Virus record (IMG/VR): IMGVR_UViG_3300017708_001182
Coordinates: 8,446 to 72,445 of that record
Strand: one strand, 5' to 3'
Source: a virus
Length of the DNA: 64,000 bases
Positions 1-13,700 of the stretch are shown one piece after another (within the stretch, counting starts at the first letter, position 1; every line of letters begins with the position of its first letter). A program made the position numbers and the translations under genes. A model generated the notes under the pieces. That model searched no databases. It worked only from the letters and a program-made list of their open reading frames with translations, and was not told the origin of the DNA.

Positions 1-4
1 AGAA

Positions 5-721
5 GTGTATCCTGAATTAGAGTTTGTAGATCCTGGTTCAGACGTACCTAATATCTATGCAATGTATAAGATAGGTTGGTTTTATGACAAGAACAGAGAG
101 CCAAAGTTGCCAAATACAATTTCGTTACAAGAGGCCGCCTCCAATATTTTAGGGCTGACGCACAAAGAAATAGTGCCAAGAGTTAAAAGTAACTGGGGAA
201 ATGAATGTGGTATGAAAGATAACTACAATGTTCCAGGTAAGTATGTAACCATAGCCACCAACTCTACAGCTGGTTGTAAGTTCTGGACAAGAGAAGGGTG
301 GCAAGAAGTTATAAACTATCTACATGGACAAGGTTACTTTGTGATCAATACATCTATAGAAAACAATCCTTTTGATAATTGTGAGAAGATAGTTGATACC
401 AGTTTAGAATACACTATTGACTGTATAAGACAGAGTGAGTTCTTTATAGGACTGTCTAGTGGACTTAGTTGGTTAGCTTGGGCTATAGGTACACCTGTTG
501 TAATGATATCAAACTTTACAGAAGCTGACCATGAGTTTAGTTGCTATAGAGTGACTGATGAATCTTTATGTCATGGATGTTGGAATAATCCAAACCATAA
601 GTTTGACAAAGGAGATTGGGATTGGTGTCCTGAACATAAAAATACCCCTAGACATTTTGAATGTCATAGAGGTATAAAATCTGATAAGGTTATTAATATG
701 ATTAAATCTATTTCCCTCTAG
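5..721 (+). CDS. TibC/AAH-family (autotransporter strand-loop-strand O-heptosyltransferase-like) GT-B glycosyltransferase, 5'-truncated
   Basis: IATNSTAGCKFW and FFIGLSSGLSWLAWAIGTPVVMISNFT are GT9-like motifs. The C-terminal CHGC-x15-C-x11-C (CHGCWNN...WCPEHK...FEC) fits the iron-finger of TibC/AAH. The frame is open back to position 2 and the track start is a GTG, so the gene probably begins before the window. Confidence 0.85.
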   Translation: MYPELEFVDPGSDVPNIYAMYKIGWFYDKNREPKLPNTISLQEAASNILGLTHKEIVPRVKSNWGNECGMKDNYNVPGKYVTIATNSTAGCKFWTREGWQEVINYLHGQGYFVINTSIENNPFDNCEKIVDTSLEYTIDCIRQSEFFIGLSSGLSWLAWAIGTPVVMISNFTEADHEFSCYRVTDESLCHGCWNNPNHKFDKGDWDWCPEHKNTPRHFECHRGIKSDKVINMIKSISL

Positions 722-2726
722 TACAGTACACTACATCGCCTTTGTTGTTTGCAAAACCTATGCTACCATTTCTTTCATTAACACAAATTGATACAAGATA
801 AAGATCTGTTTCTTTATCACCACATCCCTTAAACCATGCTATTGTTGCATCTCTTCCGTCTTTACCAGCAGGTCCCTGAGGTCCTGTGTCACCTTTACCA
901 CCAGTTGCACCTGTATTACCAGTTGCACCTTGCACCCCTTGTATACCTTGATAACCTCTAGGACCCTGTGAGCCTGTTGCTCCATTTACACCTGATGTAC
1001 CGTTTGAACCAGCTGGTCCTCTTGATCCTGTATTACCTTTAGCTCCATTTACACCTGACGTTCCACTAGTTCCTGACGTACCATTAGCCCCTGCATTACC
1101 TGTGTTACCTTTAGGTCCCTGAGCTCCAGTACTACCTGTAGCTCCTTTAGCACCATTTGATCCATTTATACCAGAAGTTCCATTTGCACCTGCATTACCT
1201 TGTGGTCCTCTACTACCTGTAGCTCCTGTGTTACCTTTTGCACCATTTACTCCAGAAGTTCCGTTTGCCCCAGCTGCTCCAGTATTACCTTTTGGACCAG
1301 TACTCCCTCTAGGTCCAGTTGCTCCATTTACTCCAGAGGTACCAGATGTACCATTGGCACCAGCTGCACCAGTGTTTCCAGTATTACCTTTTACACCTTG
1401 AGGACCAGTTGATCCTGTATTACCTTTACTTCCCTGAGGTCCTTGTATACCTTGAATACCTTGAGCTCCATTAGATCCATTAGATCCAGCAGGCCCAGTT
1501 GGTCCTCGTAAACCCTGAGATCCAGTAGAACCTTTTGCACCATCCACACCACTTGTACCATTTGCGCCTGCAGCACCAGTGTTACCTTTTGGACCAGTTG
1601 GTCCTTGAGCACCAGTGTTACCTTTAGGACCTTGAATACCTTGTATTCCCTGAGAACCTGTTGCACCTTTAGCTCCTGTTGCACCTTTGGCTCCACTAGT
1701 ACCACTAGTACCATTTGCTCCAGCTGCACCTGTTGAACCAGTATTTCCTTTAACTCCTTGTGATCCTTGAGGTCCTGTAGCTCCTTGTGCTCCAGTATTA
1801 CCTTTATCTCCTTTAGGTCCTTTAATAGAACCACCACTTATCCACCCTTCAGCAGATGTCCATAACCATATAGAATCGTCTGATTGAACAATATAAGCAT
1901 CTCCATTACTATTACCTGTAGAGGGTAAGTTAGCTTCAGTCGCTACCTCACCTTTCATTGTTATACCCCATCCAGCATCACCTTTTGCGCCTGTATCTCC
2001 TTTTACCCCTTGTATACCCTGGGCTCCTGTATCTCCTTTTACACCTTGTGCACCAGTGTTTCCTTTAGCGCCATTTACTCCACTAGTACCACTTGTTCCA
2101 GCATTACCAGTGTTTCCTTTAGCACCAGTTATTCCTTGAATTCCTTGAACTCCTCTATCTCCTTTGACTCCTTGAATTCCTTGACTACCTGTATTTCCTT
2201 TAGCTCCACTTGTACCACTAGTTCCGTTAGATCCAGCATTACCAGTATTACCTTTTATTCCTTGATCTCCTTGATCTCCCTTAGGACCTTGTCCTCCAGT
2301 TGCTCCTTGTAAACCTCTTGGTCCTTGTGAACCTTGGTTACCTTGAGCACCAGTTAGTCCAGTATTACCTTTAGGTCCTTGTGAACCTGTATCTCCTTTT
2401 GGACCTTGTGCTCCAGTGTCTCCCTTAGGTCCCTGAGATGCAGCTTTATTACAGTCTTTTCCAAATGCACAAACAGTCCATTGATAAAGATCTTGTAAAT
2501 CCTCTCTTACTGATTCTAGATTGTTTATGATAGGTACAAGCGTCTGAAATCTAGCATCATCTGAAACGCTATCTATAATAGTTGAGTGAGCAGCAATATC
2601 TTCTGTTTCACTAGTAGGCGTTCTCACTACACCATCAGCATCCCTTCCTGGTTTATTTCTTCCAGGATCATTTTTGTATAAAGGATGTGATAGTTGTATA
2701 TCATTATTTAAATTACTTGCTGCCAT
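708..2726 (-). CDS. Collagen-like (Gly-X-Y) fibre protein with interspersed NGTSG units
   Basis: Long GXY runs (GPKGDT, GAQGIQ, GATG), a small central globular insert (WGITMKGEVATEANLP...GDAYIV...WLW) and a Cys-containing C-terminal domain. Its 3' end overlaps the convergent glycosyltransferase by 14 nt. Confidence 0.85.
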   Translation of the reverse strand: MAASNLNNDIQLSHPLYKNDPGRNKPGRDADGVVRTPTSETEDIAAHSTIIDSVSDDARFQTLVPIINNLESVREDLQDLYQWTVCAFGKDCNKAASQGPKGDTGAQGPKGDTGSQGPKGNTGLTGAQGNQGSQGPRGLQGATGGQGPKGDQGDQGIKGNTGNAGSNGTSGTSGAKGNTGSQGIQGVKGDRGVQGIQGITGAKGNTGNAGTSGTSGVNGAKGNTGAQGVKGDTGAQGIQGVKGDTGAKGDAGWGITMKGEVATEANLPSTGNSNGDAYIVQSDDSIWLWTSAEGWISGGSIKGPKGDKGNTGAQGATGPQGSQGVKGNTGSTGAAGANGTSGTSGAKGATGAKGATGSQGIQGIQGPKGNTGAQGPTGPKGNTGAAGANGTSGVDGAKGSTGSQGLRGPTGPAGSNGSNGAQGIQGIQGPQGSKGNTGSTGPQGVKGNTGNTGAAGANGTSGTSGVNGATGPRGSTGPKGNTGAAGANGTSGVNGAKGNTGATGSRGPQGNAGANGTSGINGSNGAKGATGSTGAQGPKGNTGNAGANGTSGTSGTSGVNGAKGNTGSRGPAGSNGTSGVNGATGSQGPRGYQGIQGVQGATGNTGATGGKGDTGPQGPAGKDGRDATIAWFKGCGDKETDLYLVSICVNERNGSIGFANNKGDVVYCTRGK

Positions 2727-2728
2727 AT

Positions 2729-5700
2729 CTATTTATTTGTTGTGTATTCTATTATAAATGTTGCACTTGATCCAAACATGTATCCTGTACTTCCAGATGC
2801 TACATAAGCAAACTGAACTCTATCACCTGCTGAAAAAGTTGCATCTGTATCATCAAAGGTATATGTTCCCATCATTCCGTTAGATCCTCCGTTTGTAACT
2901 GTTGGTGCTTGACTAGAGACATTTGATCCATTTACATAAACTCTAAATGATGCAAACCCTGTTGCTGTTGGTGTTCCTGTGATATTTTTTATTCTTATAT
3001 GTCTCACTCTTCCATCATAAGGTGCAACGAAATTGTTATAATATTGACTACTATTTGTTTCACCTACTGTTCCTCCAACAGGCATGTATATTACAGTTCC
3101 TGATTGCTGATTGCTTGAGCTTGCATAAAATGTAGAAATTAATGTTTGTTTCTCCCAACTCCATTGAACTACATCTTGGCCTTTAGATTTTAAATTTTGA
3201 CCTGCTGCACCATAATCTCCAGTAGCATCTCTTATTCCTGAGTCTTCAAGAAAGAGACTCCCTTTCCAAAGATGAAGCATTTCTGTAGGAGTTCTGTTAA
3301 TACCAACCTTTAGTCCGTGTACTAAAGTTGCATTACCAGTATCCCACCTACTAACTCCCCCAGACCAATAATTATCAACATCACCAATTTCAATAAGAGC
3401 ATCTCCATTTGTACCACCTGCTGGTTTCATATGAAGCATACTTGAAGTTCCTGGATTGCCAGTCTTAGCAAACGCTGCCTCTCCTTTAAAGTATGAATCT
3501 CCAGCTACTTCAAGTTTATTTCCAGGTATAACGTTACCTGTACCAATTCCAATGTTTCCAGCTGGACCAATAACCATTCGTGTTGAAGGCTGACTACCTG
3601 TTGAGTATGGACCAGTTTGAAATTTTAGTACTCCACCACCAGCATTACCTGAGCCAGGACCGTTTTTAACTTCACCTATTATTTGAGAAGAAATATATGA
3701 GTTACCACTATCTCCTCTACCACCAAATTGAAGAACACCTAAAACTTGCCCTGAAACTACACTAAGATCTGTAGAGTGTAATAAAAGAGTTCCAGCAGTA
3801 TTTGACGTTGACTTACTTGCTATTATTGCATCTGGTGTGTAAGAAGAAGCACTAACAGTAGTAAAAGGAAAAACATTAACAGTAAATGCTGCTGGGTCAC
3901 CATCATTGTTTACATATAAGTATCCATTACCAACACTAACATTGTTTTGTCTGTTTCCTATACCTCCTCCAAGATTAATAGTATTACCAGACTGAGCATA
4001 GACAAGCATAGCTCCATTGTAGTTAGAAATAAAGTTATTTAAACCATTACCAACATATACAGAGGTGCCATATATATCACCATTTACATTCAATTCAAGT
4101 GTAGAATTTACAGCAGTTGTACCGTTTACAATAACTTGCCCAATGTTATTAACATGTAATTTTTCAGAATTACCAGCCATCATAGATAATGTAGCTCCAG
4201 TACCTGTTACATAAAACTCATCACCTACACCATCAATATCTCCTATTGCGAAAGCTCCACTAGCAGCAGTAACGTATAAAGCTTGATCTCCATTAAGACC
4301 ATCAGTAACTTCAAAATTCTGACCAACACTTGTTGTAGATCCACTGTCACTATTGTTTGAGTTACCTATAGTAGAACCACTAGTAAACTTAACAAGTCTA
4401 TTTGTAGTTCCTGATACAGTTACAGATGATCCACTAGTACCAGAGGTACCTGTTGTACCAGATGTACCTGTCGTTCCACTAGTACCTGTTGTCCCACTCG
4501 TACCTGTTGTACCACTAGTTCCTGAGGTGCCACTAGATCCACTTGTTCCATCACCTCCATCATCCCCAGAGGTACCGCTTGTGCCACTAGTTCCTGAAGA
4601 TCCAGAATCACCTGACGTACCACTAGTTCCAGAGTTACCACTAGTTCCTGATGTCCCAGAGGTTCCATCACCACCATCGTCACCACTTGTCCCAGAAGTT
4701 CCACTAGTTCCAGAAGTACCATTTGTACCATTCTCTCCTGAAGTTCCACTTGTACCTGAGTTTCCACTAGTACCAGACGTGCCTGACGTACCATTGTTAC
4801 CAGACGTACCAGATGAACCGCTAGTACCAGATGTGCCACTTGTACCAGAGTTACCACTTGTTCCAGAGGTTCCAGTAGTTCCTGACGTTCCATTATTTCC
4901 ACTTGTGCCTGAAGTGCCTGATGTTCCAGTTGTACCTGATGTTCCACTATTTCCACTAGTCCCACTAGTTCCACTGGTACCATCATCTCCTGATGTTCCT
5001 GAAGTTCCAGAATTACCACTGGTTCCAGACGTACCAGAAGTACCGTCATCACCACTAGAACCACTAGTTCCTGCAGTGCCAGATGTACCACTTGTTCCAG
5101 TATTACCTGAGCTTCCAGAGGTTCCTGAAGTACCAGATGTTCCACTACTTCCAGGATCACCTTTGTCACCTGTTACAACAAAACAAACAGCTACATCATC
5201 GTTTGTTGAAAGAGGATTATTTTCAGAAGCGGCTACTGGTGTAAGACTCATACTGTACCAATTAGAACCTGGTTGAGCTGTAGCTGTAATAGCAAATAAT
5301 ACAAACTCAGTTGCATCATTTTGGTCAGATATTCTTACATGTCCTAAAACTGCAGAGGTTCCAGCAGCTAGAGCATCATAGAAGCTTTCTATATCTTCTC
5401 CTTGGTCATCTAATGTACTAATGTCTAGTCTACTGGAGCTAGCTTGGTTAGTAGTATAACGCAACTCAATCTTTCCAGATCCTGGATCAGATGTTATGGT
5501 ACTTGCTTGACCATTATAAACATAATCAAAACATGCTCCACCAAAGGAACCATCATTTCCACTACTACCACTACTTCCACTAGTTCCTGAAGTACCTGAG
5601 CTTCCACTATTACCACTAGATCCACTTGTTCCAGACGTACCAGAGGTACCTGTTGTTCCGCTAGTTCCATCATCACCACTGGTACCAGATGTACCACTGT

Positions 5701-8700
5701 TTCCAGATGTTCCACTTGTACCTGACGTACCGTTGTTTCCACTGGTTCCACTAGTTCCACTAGTTCCAGTTGTACCACTGGTTCCATCTTCAGCAGATGT
5801 ACCAGATGTACCTGATGTTCCAGAGGTTCCACTGTTTCCTGAGGTACCTGACGTACCACTTGTTCCATCATCCCCACTTGTTCCACTTGACCCACTAGTA
5901 CCAGAAGTTCCAGTAGTTCCACTTGTTCCGTCCTCTCCTGATGTACCACTAGTACCACTATTTCCACTAGTACCTGACGTTCCAGATGTTCCATTCTCTC
6001 CACTTGTTCCACTGGTTCCAGAATCACCTGACGTACCGCTTGTACCTGAAGAACCATCATCACCATCTTCTCCAGATGTACCTGATGTACCACTGTTACC
6101 ACTTGTTCCAGAGGTACCACTAGACCCATCATCTCCATCAATACCACTCGTACCTGCTGTTCCACTAGAACCAGCAGTTCCACTAGAACCACTTGTTCCA
6201 GAAGTTCCTGTTGTCCCTGATGTACCAGATGTACCAGCTGTACCAGATGTTGCAGAGGTACCAGACGTACCACTAGTACCACTAGTTCCATTATCTCCGT
6301 CTTCACCTGAAGTACCAGACGTTCCACTTGTACCACTTGTACCGTTTAAACCATCGTTACCAGAGCTACCACTTGTACCAGCTGTACCTGAGGTTCCTGT
6401 AGTGCCACTAGTACCAGAAGTTCCTGCATCTCCATCAATTCCAGATGTACCACTCGTGCCTGATGTACCACTTGTTGCTGACGTACCAGATGTTCCAGAA
6501 GTGCCAGATGTTCCATCATCACCATCTAACCCACTGGTTCCTGAAGTTCCACTAGAACCATCATTACCGTCAATAGCAGAAGTACCACTCGTACCAGATG
6601 TACCAGATGTTGCTGAGCTACCACTAGTACCTGATGTACCTGCAGTTGCTGATGTACCACTTGTACCAGTAGTACCACTAGTACCTGCTGTAGCGCTTGT
6701 ACCTGATGTACCACTACTACCGTCTCCACCAGTTGCACCATCTAAGTTTATTTCCCAAGCTGTGTAAGTTCCACTACCCACTGTTCTAGTAGGTGCTGCG
6801 AAACATAACTCACCTGTACCTGAATTATATGAAGTTACTTCACATTCCTGATAGTTAGTTGAATTATAAGCTATGATTATAGATTGTGCTATAGTGTATG
6901 CTAAACCAGTATCAACATCTAAGCATCCAGCAACTCCCAAAGTAAAGGAATCTGTTGATGTAGTAGCATATATATCTCCTTGTTCTCCTGAGGTTCCAGA
7001 CGTACCAGAGGTTGCACTTGTACCACTAGTGCCACTAGTTCCGCTTGTTCCAGCAGTTCCACTTGTACCTGTAGTACCAGATGTTCCATCTACAGCACTT
7101 GTTCCAGAAGTCCCACTTGTACCACTGGTACCACTTGTTCCTGATGAGCCGTCTGTTCCTGTTGTACCAGCTGTTCCTGATGTAGCAGATGTCCCAGATG
7201 TTCCAGATGTTCCATCGTTTCCAGCTAAACCAGATGTGCCAGACGTACCAGATGTACCTGTAGTACCACTCGTACCATCGTTTCCTGAAGTTCCAGATGT
7301 ACCTGCTGTTCCACTAGTACCAGCTGTTGCTGAAGTTCCTGAAGAACCACTAGTGCCATCAATTGCAGATGTACCACTAGTACCTGTTGTACCTGATGTG
7401 CCACTTGTGCCTGAAGAACCACTGGTACCTGTTGTACCAGACGTTCCTGATGTGGCTGAAGTTCCACTGGTACCACTTGTCCCAGCAGTGCCACTTGTTC
7501 CACTAGTACCGTCTTCTCCTGATGTTCCAGCTGTACCACTTGTACCGCTTGATCCAGTTAAACCACTACTACCAGAAGAACCACTTGTTCCTGAAGAACC
7601 ATCTTCTGCACTGGTACCTGATGTACCTGTTGTGCCTGATGTTCCAGAAGTAGCACTAGTACCAGATGTGCCAGAGGTTCCTGATGTGCCACTTGTTCCA
7701 TCTATTGCAGATGTACCTGAAGTACCACTAGTCCCACTGCTACCACTTGTACCAGTTGTACCAGAGGTGCCTGTTGTACCGCTTGTACCTGACGTGCCTG
7801 ATGTACCATCTACACCTGTTGTACCAGAAGTACCTGAAGTTCCAGAAGAACCATCTCCTCCTGTTGCTCCATCTAAATTAACTTCCCATGAAGTATATGT
7901 GCCTGATCCTACAGTTCTTGTAGGTGCTGCAAAGCAAAGCTCTCCAGTTGCACTGTCATATGTTACAACTTCACACTCTTGATAATTGTTTGCATCATAT
8001 GCTATAATAATAGATTGTGCAGTTGTATATGCCAGCCCTGTATCTACATCAATACATCCTGAGCTACCTAATGTAAATGAGTCTGTAGAGGTTGTAGCAT
8101 AAAAGTCTCCATCTAATCCACTTGTACCTGATGTTCCGCTAGTACCTGTAGTACCTGCAGTTCCACTTGTTCCAGAGGAGCCATCTTGACCTGTTGTTCC
8201 TGACGTACCACTGCTTCCACTAGTACCAGTTGTCCCTGAAGTACCACTAGAGCCATCTAACCCTGAAGAGCCTGAGGTTCCTGAGGTTCCTGATGTCGCA
8301 CTTGTACCTGAAGTTCCACTTGTACCAGATGTTCCATCTTCAGCACTCGTTCCACTTGTTCCAGATGTACCAGAACTACCTGAAGTACCACTAGATCCTG
8401 AACAAAGTCCATTAACATTTACACTACCTCCATTACTAACTGTAGGAGTAGCATCTGCACAGACATCTGTAGCTGTTCCTTGTGTAATTGTAACAAATCC
8501 ACTTGATCCATCACAATAACTTATACCTGCTATACAATCTCCACCTCCAGCTGGACATGTAATGTTATAACTATTACAAGATAATCCACTAGTTCCACTT
8601 GTACCACTAGTACCATCTTGTGCAGATGTACCAGAAGTACCAGCTGTACCTGATGTGCCAGTAGAGCCACTTGTTCCACTTGTACCTGCAGTTGCAGAAG

Positions 8701-10300
8701 TTCCAGAAGTTCCACTAGTTGCAGAAGTTCCAGATGTGCCAGATGTTCCACTGGTACCTGAAGTACCTGAGGTAGATCCTACAGCTACACCAATTTGCAT
8801 AGTGTTAAATACAACACTAGGAGCAGCAGGTATTGCGTAAGGAGACGCTTGACTTGCTCTTGCTATTATATGTGCAGAACTATTACTAGATGCTATAATT
8901 AACTCTAAGTAATCATTTGCATCTAGGTTTACTAAATATTCTGCATAAGGTAAGTGAATTTCACTGTTAGAAACTACACTAAGTAACCTATCTTTTCTTA
9001 TAAAGTCTGTACCGTTTTTTCTTAGAAAAATATCAACACCAGTTGTACCACCTGCTGTTTTCATAACTTGTAAAGAGTATCCCACTTTATATACACCAGC
9101 ATGAGGGTATCTAATTTGCTGATTAAAGTCTAAGACAACACCATTAACAGTTTCTACAGTATTGAATGTAATAGCTGTAGGTGTATTAGCTGCAGACACA
9201 AATTGACTTGTGTTATCAGAAAAACTTGCATACCAGTTAGCTATAGCTGCTCCTGAAGAGCCATCTATACCACTTGTTCCTGCAGATCCTGATGTACCTG
9301 TTGTCCCAGCTGTACCACTAGTTCCACTGGTCCCACTTGTTCCTGTAGTACCAGACGTACCTGCAGTCCCACTTGAACCACTCGTACCTGTTGTACCAGA
9401 TGTTGCAGATGTTCCTGACGTACCAGATGTTGCAGATGTTCCACTAGTTCCAGAACTACCACTAGTACCTGTTGTTCCACTTGTCCCAGTAGTTCCGCTT
9501 GTACCACTTGTCCCAGTAGTTCCTGAACTTCCACTAGTACCTGTAGTACCACTGGTTCCACTTGTACCATGTGATCCATCACCACCTGTAGCACCATCTA
9601 AATTTACTTGCCAGTCACAATAGGTACCACTACCTACAGTACGTGTTGGTGCAGCAAAACATAGAGAACCTGTTGCTGGGTTATAAGATATTACCTCACA
9701 CTCTTGGTAGTTATTAGCATCGTGTGCTATAATAATTGATTGAGCTACTGTGTAAGCTAATCCTGTGTCAACAAATATACAACCTCCAGCACCTAGTGTA
9801 AAGCAAGTTGTAGAAGTTGTAGCATATTTATCTCCATCTTCTCCTGCTGTACCACTTGTGCCGCTAGTACCACTTGTGCCTGTTGTTCCACTAGTACCAC
9901 TGGTTCCTGTAGTACCACTAGTTCCAGTAGTTCCTGATGAACCACTTGATCCACCTGTGCCAGATGTTCCAGATGAACCGCTTGTACCTGCAGTACCACT
10001 AGACCCACTAGTTCCACTTGTCCCAGAAGAGCCAGAAGTGCCTGTTGTGCCAGACGTACCACTAGTACCAGAAGTACCAGAAGTCCCAGTAGTTCCTGAA
10101 GTACCAGAAGTACCAGAAGTACCACTAGTTCCATCAACGCCTTTACCAGCACACAATGCATCATTAATATTTTGTAATGCTTCTTCTAAGGTTTGATTAG
10201 TGTTGACTTTAGCACATACTAAATTAGGTCCTTCGTAAAAGACGCATGCACTACTTAGTCTTGTTTTGCAGGGATCTGCTGCACAAATTAACTTACTCAT
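2729..10300 (-). CDS. Giant 2523-aa fibre/adhesin-like virion protein with (Gly-Thr-Ser)n arrays and repeated globular domains
   Basis: N-terminal Cys-rich CVFYEGPNL domain, several GTS arrays, three copies of an ~88-aa domain, a C1q/BclA-CTD-like domain (about 8790-9240), and fibre-like GIGT..P...LEVAG segments near the C-terminus. Confidence 0.8.
4420..10135 (-). repeat. Degenerate 9-bp/tripeptide (GTS)n arrays within the giant fibre gene
   Basis: About seven blocks of GTS/GTT/GSS/GTA tripeptides in strict 3-residue register, interrupted by globular domains. Approximate blocks: 4420-5160, 5560-6715, 6985-7850, 8115-8400, 8590-8780, 9255-9570, 9840-10135. Confidence 0.97.
6719..9838 (-). 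repeat. Three dispersed copies of an ~88-aa domain (GDx[27 protein letters not shown]....NYQECEV..Y...[28 protein letters not shown])
   Basis: Copies at about 9576-9838, 7851-8112 and 6719-6980, directly visible in the translation. Confidence 0.95.
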
Positions 10301-10313
10301 CTGGAAATTATTT

Positions 10314-10703
10314 TTAGTGTACTATTTTCAGGATGTCTCCTGTTCTGTAGAGTTGTCCAGCAACTAAGCCAGAGAATAATGCCTCAGCATTGTTAGAATA
10401 TTCAGGAGCTCCTTCTTTTGATACTGTTAACACTTGATCAAAATCATCACCTGTACCAACACTAGATGCATAGTATACCATTGATGTATTATTATCAACA
10501 TATAATTGACCTATGTGTGTTGCAGGTACTAAAGGAATTCCTAGTCCAACAAGAGGAACTAAGTTTTTATCAATGCTTCCTAAGATATTTTCTAAGTCAT
10601 CTCCAGGGTTTACTACTGCATTAGGTAAGTAGGGGCCATTGTATATAATGCATTCAGCATTTTGATATACGGCACAAGTTGGGCAAATTTCAGCGGTTCT
10701 CAT
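10314..10703 (-). CDS. Small fibre-associated protein with Cys-rich CIIYNGP N-domain
   Basis: 129 aa. N-terminus resembles those of 2729-10300, 51808-52134 and 52146-53255. C-terminal [28 protein letters not shown] resembles a short cap motif I recall from phage tail proteins. Confidence 0.7.
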
Positions 10704-10708
10704 AATTA

Positions 10709-10716
10709 CAAAGTTA
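10709..10716 (-). promoter_or_regulatory. Possible Bacteroidota -7 promoter element (TAACTTTG) upstream of the fibre genes
   Basis: Exact TAnnTTTG match in the 69-nt intergenic gap, 5 nt before the ATG. No clear -33 TTTG at the expected spacing. Confidence 0.35.
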
Positions 10717-10772
10717 TGTTTTATATATGTGTTTTAAAAATTGTTATAAAAATATAGGGCTATAATATAGCG

Positions 10773-13700
10773 TTACCTATTTCTTTTTGGGATCGTTACA
10801 TCAAACTCTTTAGCAAAATCTTCATCAAACATTGCAAGATAGTTCACAAATGATTTAGAAAGAGGGAACATCTTCATTAAGTTCTTAGTTGGTTGTGCTC
10901 TTTTTCTAACCTCTTCAGCTGTTCTGTCAGGGTTTGATATGTCAAGTCCTGTAAGCTCTTTACTAAGATGTGTTGCAAATTTACCAATTTGTGATACAGT
11001 TCCAAGAAGAGGCATTCCTGAATCAAGTGTACTTGCCATCTCTACTGGATTATAAAAGAATCCTAGCTCACTAATAAACTTATCTACAACTTTTTGAATG
11101 TATCTAAACTGATTCTTTTTAGCTCTATCATCATCATCATCTGGAGCAAGTGCACCAATAGAAAATGACAGCGCAAGCATGTTAAGTAGAATTAAAAGTT
11201 CTTTTCTTTGATTATATAGATTAGTTTGTATTAAATCTGCAAAGTCTTCTTTAGTAATGTTTGCTTGTACGCCATTTTCTTTATAGTATTTTGTAGTGTA
11301 CCTTTCATAAAGTTCGTCTATTTTTAATAGACCTTCATCTGTACCTTTTATAATACCCTGGATTAAGTTACTTTTATTGGCAATACTTTCAAGAAGAAGT
11401 CCTCCCCATAATCTAGCTCTACCTATCTCATATCTTTCACCTGTAGCTATTCCATTCTCATCTATTTCTACGTTGAAGTCATCAGCAACTTTTCTGAATT
11501 CACTAAAGCGTGTGTCAAAAAGTTTAGGTATCCATCCCTTAAATACCATTAGTGAGCGAAGCCATATGTTCATATTCACTCTCATGTTATCAAAGTCTGT
11601 CATACCTCCTGTTGCAGTTCTAGCAATAGTTCTTGCTACATTAGTTAGACGTTGTAATTCTTTTCTGTTATTTAGATCTAGTCCTGGTACAACAAGCTTG
11701 CCATCTTCTAGTTTCTTTGTAGCGTTTATAGATCTTGTTTTTTGTAGTTCTTTAATCTCTTGTTCAATCTTTGGATTTAACTCTCTAAACTTTTCAGCAC
11801 TCTCAAATCTTGCTTTATATTTCTTCTTTACAAAATCTCTGATGTTTACAAGTTTACCATCTTCAACCATCATGTTGTCTAGAAGAGCCATAAAGACAGA
11901 CTTCTCTATGTGTAATTCAGGCTGTCTAAAGAAGAAGAACAAAGTATCAGAAAAGTTTTCACTACTAGCCATATTCATCCAGCTTGTGATTCCTGCCTGT
12001 TTAAATTTTTCATAAGTACGTTCTTCTTTTAGCGGCATAAAATTATCTAACAACTGTAAGAACATTTTTCTCTCATCGTCATCTTTAAATTTATTACCTA
12101 TAAGTTTACCTTCATACTTTAATACTTCTCTGTATTTAAAGTACTTTCCTGCCAGAGCACTTAATTGAACATTACCACCAAAAGCATTTACAGAACCAGA
12201 TATAAATTCAAAACCTAAAGATCTTGCTTGAGTATATCTATTTAAAGAATCCATTGTTTTTTGAACAGAATACAAACTTTCTCTACCAGTCATTATTTCT
12301 GCACCAGTTGCTTTATTTATAATGTCTGTTATTCTTTTTGTACTAAATCCTATATCAGAATCATCTGATGCATATTTTTGACCATAGAGTGTGGCTCTAA
12401 AGAATTCATCAATAATATCAAGATTCTTCTTAGAACCTGCTTCATATTGTAATCTTCCATTTTTCTTTAAAGCACCTCCAAATCTACCTGTCTTTATGTT
12501 TTTCTTAAACTGTTGTACAGTTTTAGCAAGAAGAAGTTGATCTTCTATCTCAGTTAGGTACTTATACTTGTTCATGTGATTAACATAAAGTAGTAGGTTT
12601 TTAAATACATCTAAACTAACATCAGAGTAGTCATTAGGACCTTCATCTTGAACACTAAAATCAGTAGTGTAGTATTTAGGTATAGAGTTTTCTATTTCAT
12701 TTGTAAGCTCATTGATAGATCCGTATCCAACATCATCAGCATTATTTTGTAGTCGCTCTTTGAATCTGGATATAGGAGGCAAGGAACCATCCCAGGCGAT
12801 ACTTTCTGCCATGCTCTTTCTAACAAATGGTAAAAATGTAGAACGTACAGCATTGTTTATATAACCCATGTCTGCAGCTTTTAAATTCATTTTAGTAACA
12901 AAATTAAAAAGCTCAAGTAATTCAGGATCTTTTTTAATTTCAACATATTCCTTGCTTTCCCACTTTTCTTTTGGATGTCTTTTTAGCACATAATTATTCC
13001 AGCCGTTAAAGTCAGTTCTAGTTACATCCCACATTTTATTAGCATCTAGTATTAACTTTTCTCTAAGTTCACCTTCTGGATTGTTTTTCTTTATTCTAGC
13101 AATAGACCTATCTAGTATAGGTTTAGACTCTTGATAGTAGGCTGGCAAGTTAACATTATCTTTAAGCCACTTCTTACTTCTTGCACCTTCTTCTCCATTA
13201 TCTTTCAATTCTGCATAAAACTCTGGAGCATATTTATATATTAGATTGTTTACAAGGCCACCTTTATCATCCTTTTGATATATAGCAGACACTATCTTTT
13301 TTAAATCACCACCTCTAGCTTTTAGTTTATCCCTGATGTCTAATAGCTCATTAGTTTCTATTAATGATTCTTGATTAGCTTTACCCATTGCAGCATTAGC
13401 CATCTTGTATAAAAGATCTGTAGCTGCTAAACCTATATCTGATAGTCCTCTAAACAATGACTTAAGTCCTCTTACAACTCTTTCTGGACTCATTAATCCT
13501 GTAACGAGATTACGTTCTCCTGAAAACTTAGAACTAAACTCTCCAGCAAGTTTTTTAATTTTTGAACCAGATCTACGAATAGATTCTTGTTGGTCTTTAA
13601 GTTTTTGGACAAGCTCTTTACGTGAAGCTATATTATCTTTGTCTTCTTCTGTAATAGCATCCTTCTCCATTTCTTTAGTGTAGATTAAATCACTAAGTTC

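Follow-up and report, generated by a model that had tools for sequence, protein, structure and literature searches.

The window analysed here is the whole 64,000-nucleotide stretch covering bases 8446-72445 of a 73.5-kb viral record (IMG/VR IMGVR_UViG_3300017708_001182, estimated 64% complete), and its left end carries a putative fibre-glycosylation module, in which a glycosyltransferase gene converges on two genes for collagen-like fibre proteins. Positions 1-721 on the plus strand hold the 3′ third of the transferase gene (residues 748-987, most of the C-lobe of its TibC-like domain), and the whole gene, encoding 987 amino acids, occupies genome positions 6203-9166 (window -2242 to 721). A first-pass annotation of this DNA had placed the start of the gene at position 5, which is wrong: the window edge cuts the gene, and its open reading frame begins 2242 nt earlier. 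The same annotation had the transferase converging on two fibre genes, and so it does, its 3′ end sharing 14 bp with that of a minus-strand gene for a 672-amino-acid collagen-like fibre protein (708-2726), beyond which lies, on the same strand, the gene for a 2523-amino-acid fibre protein (2729-10300), the presumed main acceptor. No terminator-like hairpin was found between the convergent genes. The minus strand carries nearly all genes of the record and the two collagen-like genes are the final ones of a long minus-strand block, the transferase being the sole plus-strand gene of at least 120 amino acids in the whole record. We propose, with a probability of about 0.68, that the phage enzyme O-glycosylates its own collagen-like fibres at Gly-Thr-Ser (GTS) triplets.

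The transferase is a fusion of three domains, of which the first-pass annotation had described the last 239 residues and overlooked the two further glycosyltransferase domains. Residues 651-985 match TIGR04414, the TibC/Aah equivalog model, at 269.2 bits against a cut-off of 200; the fragment inside the window reaches 204 bits by itself, and a six-frame search of the genome 270.8 bits. This domain aligns with TibC (4rap) at 31-32% identity (phmmer, E = 2e-49), and its AlphaFold2 model (predicted local distance difference test, pLDDT, 94.5) superimposes on 21 TibC chains in Foldseek, N-terminal beta-barrel included, at template-modelling (TM) scores of 0.88-0.89, the runners-up being WaaC and other enzymes of glycosyltransferase family 9 (GT9) at 0.39-0.53. 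By both sequence and fold this domain is genuinely related to TibC. A generic GT9 identity, as a lipopolysaccharide heptosyltransferase, was rejected, as those models score 20-25 bits against 269, with TM about 0.5 against 0.89. The model search had been set beforehand as a check on the TibC/AAH-type iron-finger transferase named in the first-pass annotation; its score, the predicted TibC fold and the cysteine tetrad described below all agree with that identification.

Ahead of the TibC-like domain, residues ~290-640 form a glycosyltransferase family 4 (GT4) domain (PF00534, 5e-10), and the N-terminal residues 1-290, which match no hidden Markov model, are modelled as a GT-A fold (pLDDT 89) with structural likeness to GT6, GT24 and the GT8 domain of WbbM and an invariant D-x-D motif. 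Relatives constantly keep the GT4 and TibC-like domains, while GT-A, S-adenosylmethionine (SAM)/FkbM methyltransferase and GT25 domains come and go: GT4 plus TibC gives proteins of ~700 amino acids, the addition of GT-A ~990, and that of a SAM/FkbM methyltransferase or GT25 1120-1460, the largest architecture being a 2033-amino-acid protein with two GT4 and two FkbM domains encoded beside a homing endonuclease. The added methyltransferase and GT25 domains suggest a glycan assembly line within a single chain, and such modular variation fits a glycan-building line with a constant initiating domain.

In TibC, Asp110 is the catalytic base, Cys339, Cys342, Cys358 and Cys370 are the ferric-iron ligands, Thr226 and Lys230 contact the beta-phosphate of the donor and Trp305 its sugar O4, and Arg286 hydrogen-bonds adenine N1 as the basis of ADP specificity, so that the Arg286Ala change abolishes or strongly lowers activity (PMC4358343). 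The iron-finger forms the back-to-back dimer of TibC, and a beta-hairpin 'thumb' bearing Phe265 and Val266 joins dimers into a dodecameric ring (PMC4358343). Most of this apparatus is present in the phage enzyme: Asp718, in an LGD motif, is the equivalent of Asp110; Thr837 and Lys841 (266-280, plus strand, as for all residues of this gene) correspond to Thr226 and Lys230 and are invariant in a 64-sequence alignment; Trp905 (470-472), also invariant, corresponds to Trp305; and Cys938, Cys941, Cys957 and Cys969 (569-664) constitute a four-cysteine iron-finger predicted to bind ferric iron. All four cysteine codons that the first-pass annotation had located, at 569, 578, 626 and 662, are TGT, and the C-x2-C-x15-C-x11-C spacing that it had likened to the TibC iron-finger aligns one-to-one with the four iron ligands.

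Three of the four donor-contact residues are thus retained, and Arg286 is the one lost, the alignment placing Thr886 (413-415) at its position. ADP-heptose should not be assumed as the donor because this arginine is gone, and the nucleotide of the donor may differ from ADP; the earlier caution that the donor might be something other than ADP-heptose fits the Arg286-to-Thr change. The thumb has been shortened as well (338-373), to ~19 residues compared with 28-29 in classical enzymes, a loss of ~10, and a dodecamer appears unlikely because the ring-forming hairpin is deleted. The iron-finger and the catalytic aspartate are kept; the earlier description of a TibC-type enzyme is to be amended for the lost dodecamer-building thumb and for the fusion of three domains.

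The larger fibre protein contains 254 GTS and 345 G-[ST]-[ST] tripeptides, bearing out an earlier estimate of several hundred. Runs of at least six Gly-X-Y triplets comprise 374 triplets, with Thr at X in 266 and Ser at Y in 266, and include a single proline. These are distributed over 17 Gly-Thr-Ser arrays with globular modules between them, followed by a non-repeat C-terminus of 560 amino acids. Three near-identical, cysteine-containing knobs of ~85 amino acids (residues 159-245, 734-820 and 1111-1197) share the motif Y-A-T-T-S-T ... D-T-G-L-A-Y, and a fibre encoded on an Ignavibacteriaceae-binned contig (L095:7888-11202) has this knob module too. Residues 353-540 resemble BclA_C/C1q domains by language-model features, which is a lead only. 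Searches of the non-repeat modules against PDB sequences (phmmer) gave no match, and PHROGs gave none for the C-terminus or for most neighbouring genes. Relatives carry orthologues of 2400-3300 amino acids at the same place. The 672-amino-acid protein combines an ordinary collagen-like composition with GTS and NGTSG islands: it has 160 Gly-X-Y triplets, ~28% of the X/Y positions being Ser or Thr, and 8 of the NGTSG units that the first-pass annotation had noticed. Both proteins pass the Pfam PF01391 test of long unbroken Gly-X-Y arrays (484 bits for the larger and 244 for the smaller), and the PHROG matches of the smaller are tail-fibre families.

Together the two fibres offer ~1100 Ser/Thr residues (978 + 121). 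The Bacteroidota O-glycosylation sequon D-[ST]-[AILVMT], described earlier as essentially absent from the GTS arrays, occurs once in the larger protein and twice in the smaller, and in no Gly-X-Y array of either. Since the GTS triplets are encoded by 46 different 9-mers, their serine codons are both AGY and TCN, and the DNA repeats of the arrays are only 61-93% alike, it is the GTS peptide that is under selection, and the arrays did not arise by recent DNA expansion. The NGTSG units double as N-x-T sequons (N-x-[ST] occurs 11 times in the smaller and 24 times in the larger protein), and cytoplasmic N-glycosylation of the fibres is conceivable as a second modification.

A tree of 127 TibC-like domains, drawn from 45 viral-locus clusters, three GenBank phages, one genome assembly and 80 bacterial species-genome loci, splits classical from thumbless enzymes with a support of 99, and the enzyme of the window falls on the thumbless side. 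The 53 classical sequences come from Burkholderia, Bradyrhizobium, Negativicutes and others; the 74 thumbless ones include every phage copy together with various uncultured bacteria. At the position of Arg286, 49 of the 53 classical enzymes have Arg, compared with Thr in 48 and Arg in nine of the 74 thumbless enzymes, and the thumb region measures 28-29 residues in the former and a median of 19 in the latter. The equivalents of Asp110, Lys230, Trp305 and the four iron-binding cysteines are invariant over all 127 domains, and that of Thr226 is Thr in all 74 thumbless domains and Thr or Ser in the classical ones; thumbless sequences down to 33% identity keep the active-site residues. The branch is large, with 692 clusters at E <1e-30 among 1.84 billion representative proteins, the 150 best being mostly multi-domain proteins of 500-2000 amino acids. 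Genomic context divides along the same line: a Ser/Thr-rich Gly-X-Y gene lies within 10 kb at 49 of 66 scorable thumbless loci and at none of 39 classical loci (Fisher's test, 1e-15, to be read as a description of the split and not as a probability, given shared ancestry). A bacterial assembly (L088) carries a stand-alone thumbless-clade enzyme (10001-11167, plus strand) beside a 1108-amino-acid ankyrin-repeat protein (6317-9643, minus strand), an arrangement found on two separate contigs; this locus was also scored with a Ser/Thr-rich Gly-X-Y frame in the co-occurrence scan.

Among viruses the pairing is tight and directional. A scan of viral contigs yielded 128 with a relative at 52-96% identity, which we clustered at 90% identity. 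Of 32 clusters that extend at least 5 kb downstream, 28 have a convergent Ser/Thr-rich Gly-X-Y gene immediately behind the transferase gene, with Ser or Thr at 70-97% of its X/Y positions; such a gene lies upstream in only two of 37. The reverse test began from the fibre, fetching viral contigs through its GTS block and searching the whole records with TIGR04414. The enzyme is present in 13 of 35 contigs with Ser/Thr-rich collagen (≥60%), and in eight of the ten that reach at least 40 kb, compared with none of ten contigs with Ser/Thr-poor collagen (<20%) and none of the four of at least 40 kb (Fisher p = 0.04 for all contigs and 0.015 at ≥40 kb). The figure of 13 in 35 is a lower bound, small fragments making up the majority of the Ser/Thr-rich set; in the Ser/Thr-poor set, five of the ten records have a completeness of 77-100%. 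Downstream against upstream, thumbless against classical and rich against poor, the co-occurrence is specific and greatly exceeds chance; of the two computational checks put forward in the first-pass annotation as possible refutations, this one and that of family and fold, neither went against it.

The pairing recurs in phages with other gene orders. In the cultured Microcystis phage Mel-JY01 (L084, PP395634.1), a fusion protein of 1226-1234 amino acids (4750-8430, plus strand) has a TibC-like domain at its C-terminal end and is annotated solely as 'methyltransferase FkbM', and 1.7 kb before it on the same strand an open frame of 1016 amino acids (2-3049, plus strand) devotes 606 residues to GTS-type triplets. 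That frame is unannotated in GenBank, where the record shows opposite-strand frames instead, and a 'cytidylyltransferase like' gene lies 3 kb beyond the fusion gene. A 735-kb megaphage has a Ser/Thr-rich Gly-X-Y frame of 699 amino acids 3.6 kb from its TibC-like copy, with a GT4 gene between. Carrier phages fall into different size classes, complete records among them measuring 63 kb, ~110 kb and 321 kb. Gammaproteobacterial assemblies encode a stand-alone enzyme (373-389 amino acids) flanked by small lipoproteins, each with a signal peptide, a lipobox cysteine that precedes GGG, and a tail of (GTS)n or (GSS)n that closes with poly-Asp (L100:8494-8883 and 11237-11863, L105:11109-11729 and 12062-12538, all on the minus strand, and L097 alike), and in a Methylococcales assembly a secreted (GTSGTTGTT)n protein adjoins the enzyme gene. 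The GTS-tailed lipoproteins are a possible bacterial acceptor class for the thumbless clade.

The characterised members of the family modify the product of an adjacent gene in the cytoplasm, TibC acting on TibA and Aah on AIDA-I (PMC4358343). By analogy, the 987-amino-acid phage enzyme would act in the cytoplasm of the infected cell on Ser and Thr of the fibre GTS triplets, probably before the nascent chains trimerise. The TibC-like domain would attach the first sugar with inversion, in the manner of a GT-B enzyme, Asp718 serving as catalytic base, and the fused GT4 and GT-A (DxD) domains would then lengthen it to a short glycan, with host nucleotide sugars as donors. A heptose pathway of the phage group's own was considered as a source of donor and rejected: gmhA (TIGR00441) is absent from 43 viral records that carry the TibC-like enzyme, of which 13 have a completeness of at least 90%, and five near-complete close relatives gave no match to SIS_2 (GmhA-type) or NTP_transferase, the only find in a search that also covered CTP_transf_like being a cytidylyltransferase-like frame of 149 amino acids in one of the five. 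Because gmhA is absent from the carrier records examined, the donors would have to be supplied by the host.

The collagen triple helix is usually aided by proline, hydroxyproline or charged pairs. The glycan could hydrate and stabilise a proline-free triple helix, or shield a very long exposed fibre, or both. Family, fold, conserved catalytic and metal-binding residues, architecture and the repeated, specific pairing were obtained by computation, and the earlier proposal that the phage glycosylates its own fibres gains support from the family and fold and from the co-occurrence; the glycosylation itself we infer, together with the fibres as its acceptors, the order of the three domains, the identity of the sugar and the benefit to the fibre.

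Several observations weigh against fibre glycosylation as proposed here. Arg286, needed for the activity of TibC, is absent from the phage enzyme. TibC recognises a folded beta-helix inside its dodecameric ring, and its mechanism is not simply transferable to the phage enzyme, which lacks the ring-forming thumb and would face a quite different acceptor. The virion location of both fibres is a presumption drawn from their position at the end of the structural block, from PHROG matches that are driven by collagen and from the annotations of relatives. Shared descent accounts for much of the synteny among the 128 viral contigs and inflates the counts; the truly independent cases are fewer and comprise Mel-JY01, the megaphage, the phage size classes and the bacterial loci. 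A megaphage copy (LR756504) has no collagen-like gene within 15 kb, and four of the 32 viral clusters have no collagen-like neighbour. Of these four, two (L028 and L029) carry fibres rich in Ser/Thr but unlike collagen, L053 shows nothing evident there, and L017 has a fibre (10241-13216, minus strand) with STIGGG-x2-N-x-AS-type repeats resembling YadA-like adhesin heads. The L017 fibre is nearer to the classical beta-structured substrates of the bacterial autotransporter heptosyltransferases (BAHT) than to collagen.

An alternative is that the enzyme glycosylates proteins other than the two fibres, either poly-Thr linkers of the virion or envelope proteins and lipoproteins of the host with GTS-like tails, in which case the modified host proteins could alter the cell surface during infection. 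Besides the four clusters without a collagen-like neighbour, bacterial enzymes of the same clade that adjoin (GTS)n-tailed lipoproteins speak for such targets. We nevertheless regard this as unlikely, given the tight convergent pairing with Ser/Thr-rich Gly-X-Y genes in 28 of 32 clusters and its recurrence in unrelated phages, the absence of the enzyme from phages with Ser/Thr-poor collagen, and the supply of ~1100 Ser/Thr residues by the phage's own fibres, mostly in the preferred context. Distinctly less probable is an acceptor that is not a protein, for example phage DNA, lipopolysaccharide or capsule, with the fibre genes as mere neighbours. Phage glycosyltransferases are classically associated with DNA glucosylation and serotype conversion (PMC12619734), and GT4 and GT-A domains by themselves leave the acceptor unspecified, but the characterised members of this family are protein O-glycosyltransferases whose barrel and iron-finger modules the phage domain keeps, and the association follows the Ser/Thr content of the collagen and reaches bacterial GTS lipoproteins. 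Neither of these last two patterns is what an enzyme for DNA or lipopolysaccharide would lead one to expect.

That Arg286 and the thumb are gone could alternatively signify decay, leaving a TibC-like domain that is catalytically dead or structural, for example a fibre-binding chaperone. The effect of Arg286Ala on TibC gives this idea its force, as the phage enzyme has neither that arginine nor the thumb. Set against it, the catalytic Asp, Thr226, Lys230, Trp305 and the four cysteines are invariant over the thumbless clade, down to 33% identity, and across a clade of 692 representative clusters the pattern fits purifying selection on the active site; we consider a dead domain very improbable. 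Glycosylation of the phage's own fibres accordingly remains our preferred explanation. A more ambitious generalisation, which we advance tentatively and at slightly less than even odds, is that a large thumbless branch of TibC/Aah enzymes has the G-[TS]-[ST] repeat as its dedicated acceptor, in the collagen-like fibres of widely differing phage lineages and in bacterial surface lipoproteins alike, with fusion in phages to extending transferases and sugar methyltransferases as single-chain assembly lines, a glycan that takes the place of proline or hydroxyproline in stabilising a proline-free triple helix, and a 'glycocalyx' on the virion.

As for the phage itself, its 2216-amino-acid structural protein most closely resembles 'virion structural proteins' from phi17:2 and phi4:1 (phages of Cellulophaga), Flavobacterium phage FpV4, a gut crAss-like phage and a Leptolyngbya phage, which places the phage within a wide group of large phages of Bacteroidota and their neighbours. 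Upstream of the window, a TAACTTTG motif lies ~20 nt before the transferase ATG (within L002:6150-6205, genome coordinates) and fits the Bacteroidota-type -7 box, TAnnTTTG. About 1 kb upstream of the transferase gene, an Amidase_2 gene (N-acetylmuramoyl-L-alanine amidase; L002:4784-5233, minus strand) probably encodes the endolysin. Directly upstream of the larger fibre gene, an open reading frame of 129 amino acids (10314-10703, minus strand), which has no Pfam or PHROG match, may encode a fibre assembly factor.

The nearest known systems are TibC and Aah themselves (BAHT; TIGR04414; PDB 4rap and 4rb4; PMC4358343), with which the phage domain shares sequence family, fold, the LGD aspartate, the Thr, Lys and Trp contacts and the iron-finger, as well as a gene position next to a highly repetitive, Ser/Thr-rich surface protein with hundreds of acceptor sites. 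The classical enzymes, however, act on a beta-helical autotransporter passenger, whereas the neighbours of the phage enzyme are two Gly-X-Y fibre genes; they stand alone at ~400 amino acids, whereas the phage domain follows GT-A and GT4 domains (and methyltransferase or GT25 in relatives); they have the thumb and Arg286, in contrast to a thumbless enzyme with Thr886; and they are encoded by bacteria, whereas the enzyme of the window is encoded by a phage and separated from all classical enzymes sampled by the split of support 99.

On the acceptor side the closest parallel is BclA of Bacillus anthracis and B. cereus, with BclA1 of C. difficile, which form hair-like surface filaments of Thr-rich Gly-X-Y repeats with O-linked sugars on the collagen-like part; according to a review these sugars aid hydration of the helix (PMC8968730). 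The phage fibre module at residues 353-540 resembles the BclA C-terminal/C1q domain, again as a lead from language-model features only. BclA differs in having Pro at X (GPT) and a place in the exosporium, whereas the phage fibre arrays are essentially proline-free, the protein is more than 10 times longer and it presumably belongs to a virus particle. No GT9 iron-finger enzyme is known to modify BclA.

Two viral systems offer further comparison. In mycobacteriophages, phage-encoded glycosyltransferases place glycans on the C-termini of capsid and tail-tube proteins, according to PMC12619734 and PMC12801897, which describe the work of Freeman et al. 2023; there, as we propose for the phage of the window, phage enzymes decorate the virus's own structural proteins. 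Their hosts are Actinobacteria and the enzymes are not reported to be of TibC type, whereas the present phage would combine collagen-like fibres, hundreds of potential sites and an initiator from the BAHT family. Mimivirus has genes for collagen-like proteins as well as for an enzyme that glycosylates them, the latter function being a proposed one in our phage, and in its eukaryotic host a bifunctional hydroxylase-glycosyltransferase places sugar on hydroxylysine (Luther et al. 2011, cited in PMC8968730). The phage system differs in using Ser/Thr hydroxyls as the likely acceptors, without a hydroxylase and with an unrelated enzyme family. A full-text literature search returned no paper linking TibC/BAHT enzymes to collagen-like proteins or to phages, and the system would represent an established enzyme family in which the acceptor class, the architecture and the host, a virus, are all new.

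If fibre glycosylation is borne out, the substrate range of BAHT enzymes would widen from the autotransporter adhesins of Proteobacteria to collagen-like repeats, and glyco-engineering would gain a useful tool in a compact enzyme able to hyper-glycosylate a simple tripeptide repeat. The question is directly testable, since the same module is present in a phage in culture, Microcystis phage Mel-JY01. Proline-free Gly-Thr-Ser collagens of up to several thousand residues would find an explanation, with sugar giving the kind of hydration that hydroxyproline gives in animals, and the sugar coat of such fibres would bear on host recognition, protease resistance and antibody recognition of phages. 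Phage virion glycosylation would then extend from mycobacteriophages to abundant environmental phages related to those of Bacteroidota and cyanobacteria.

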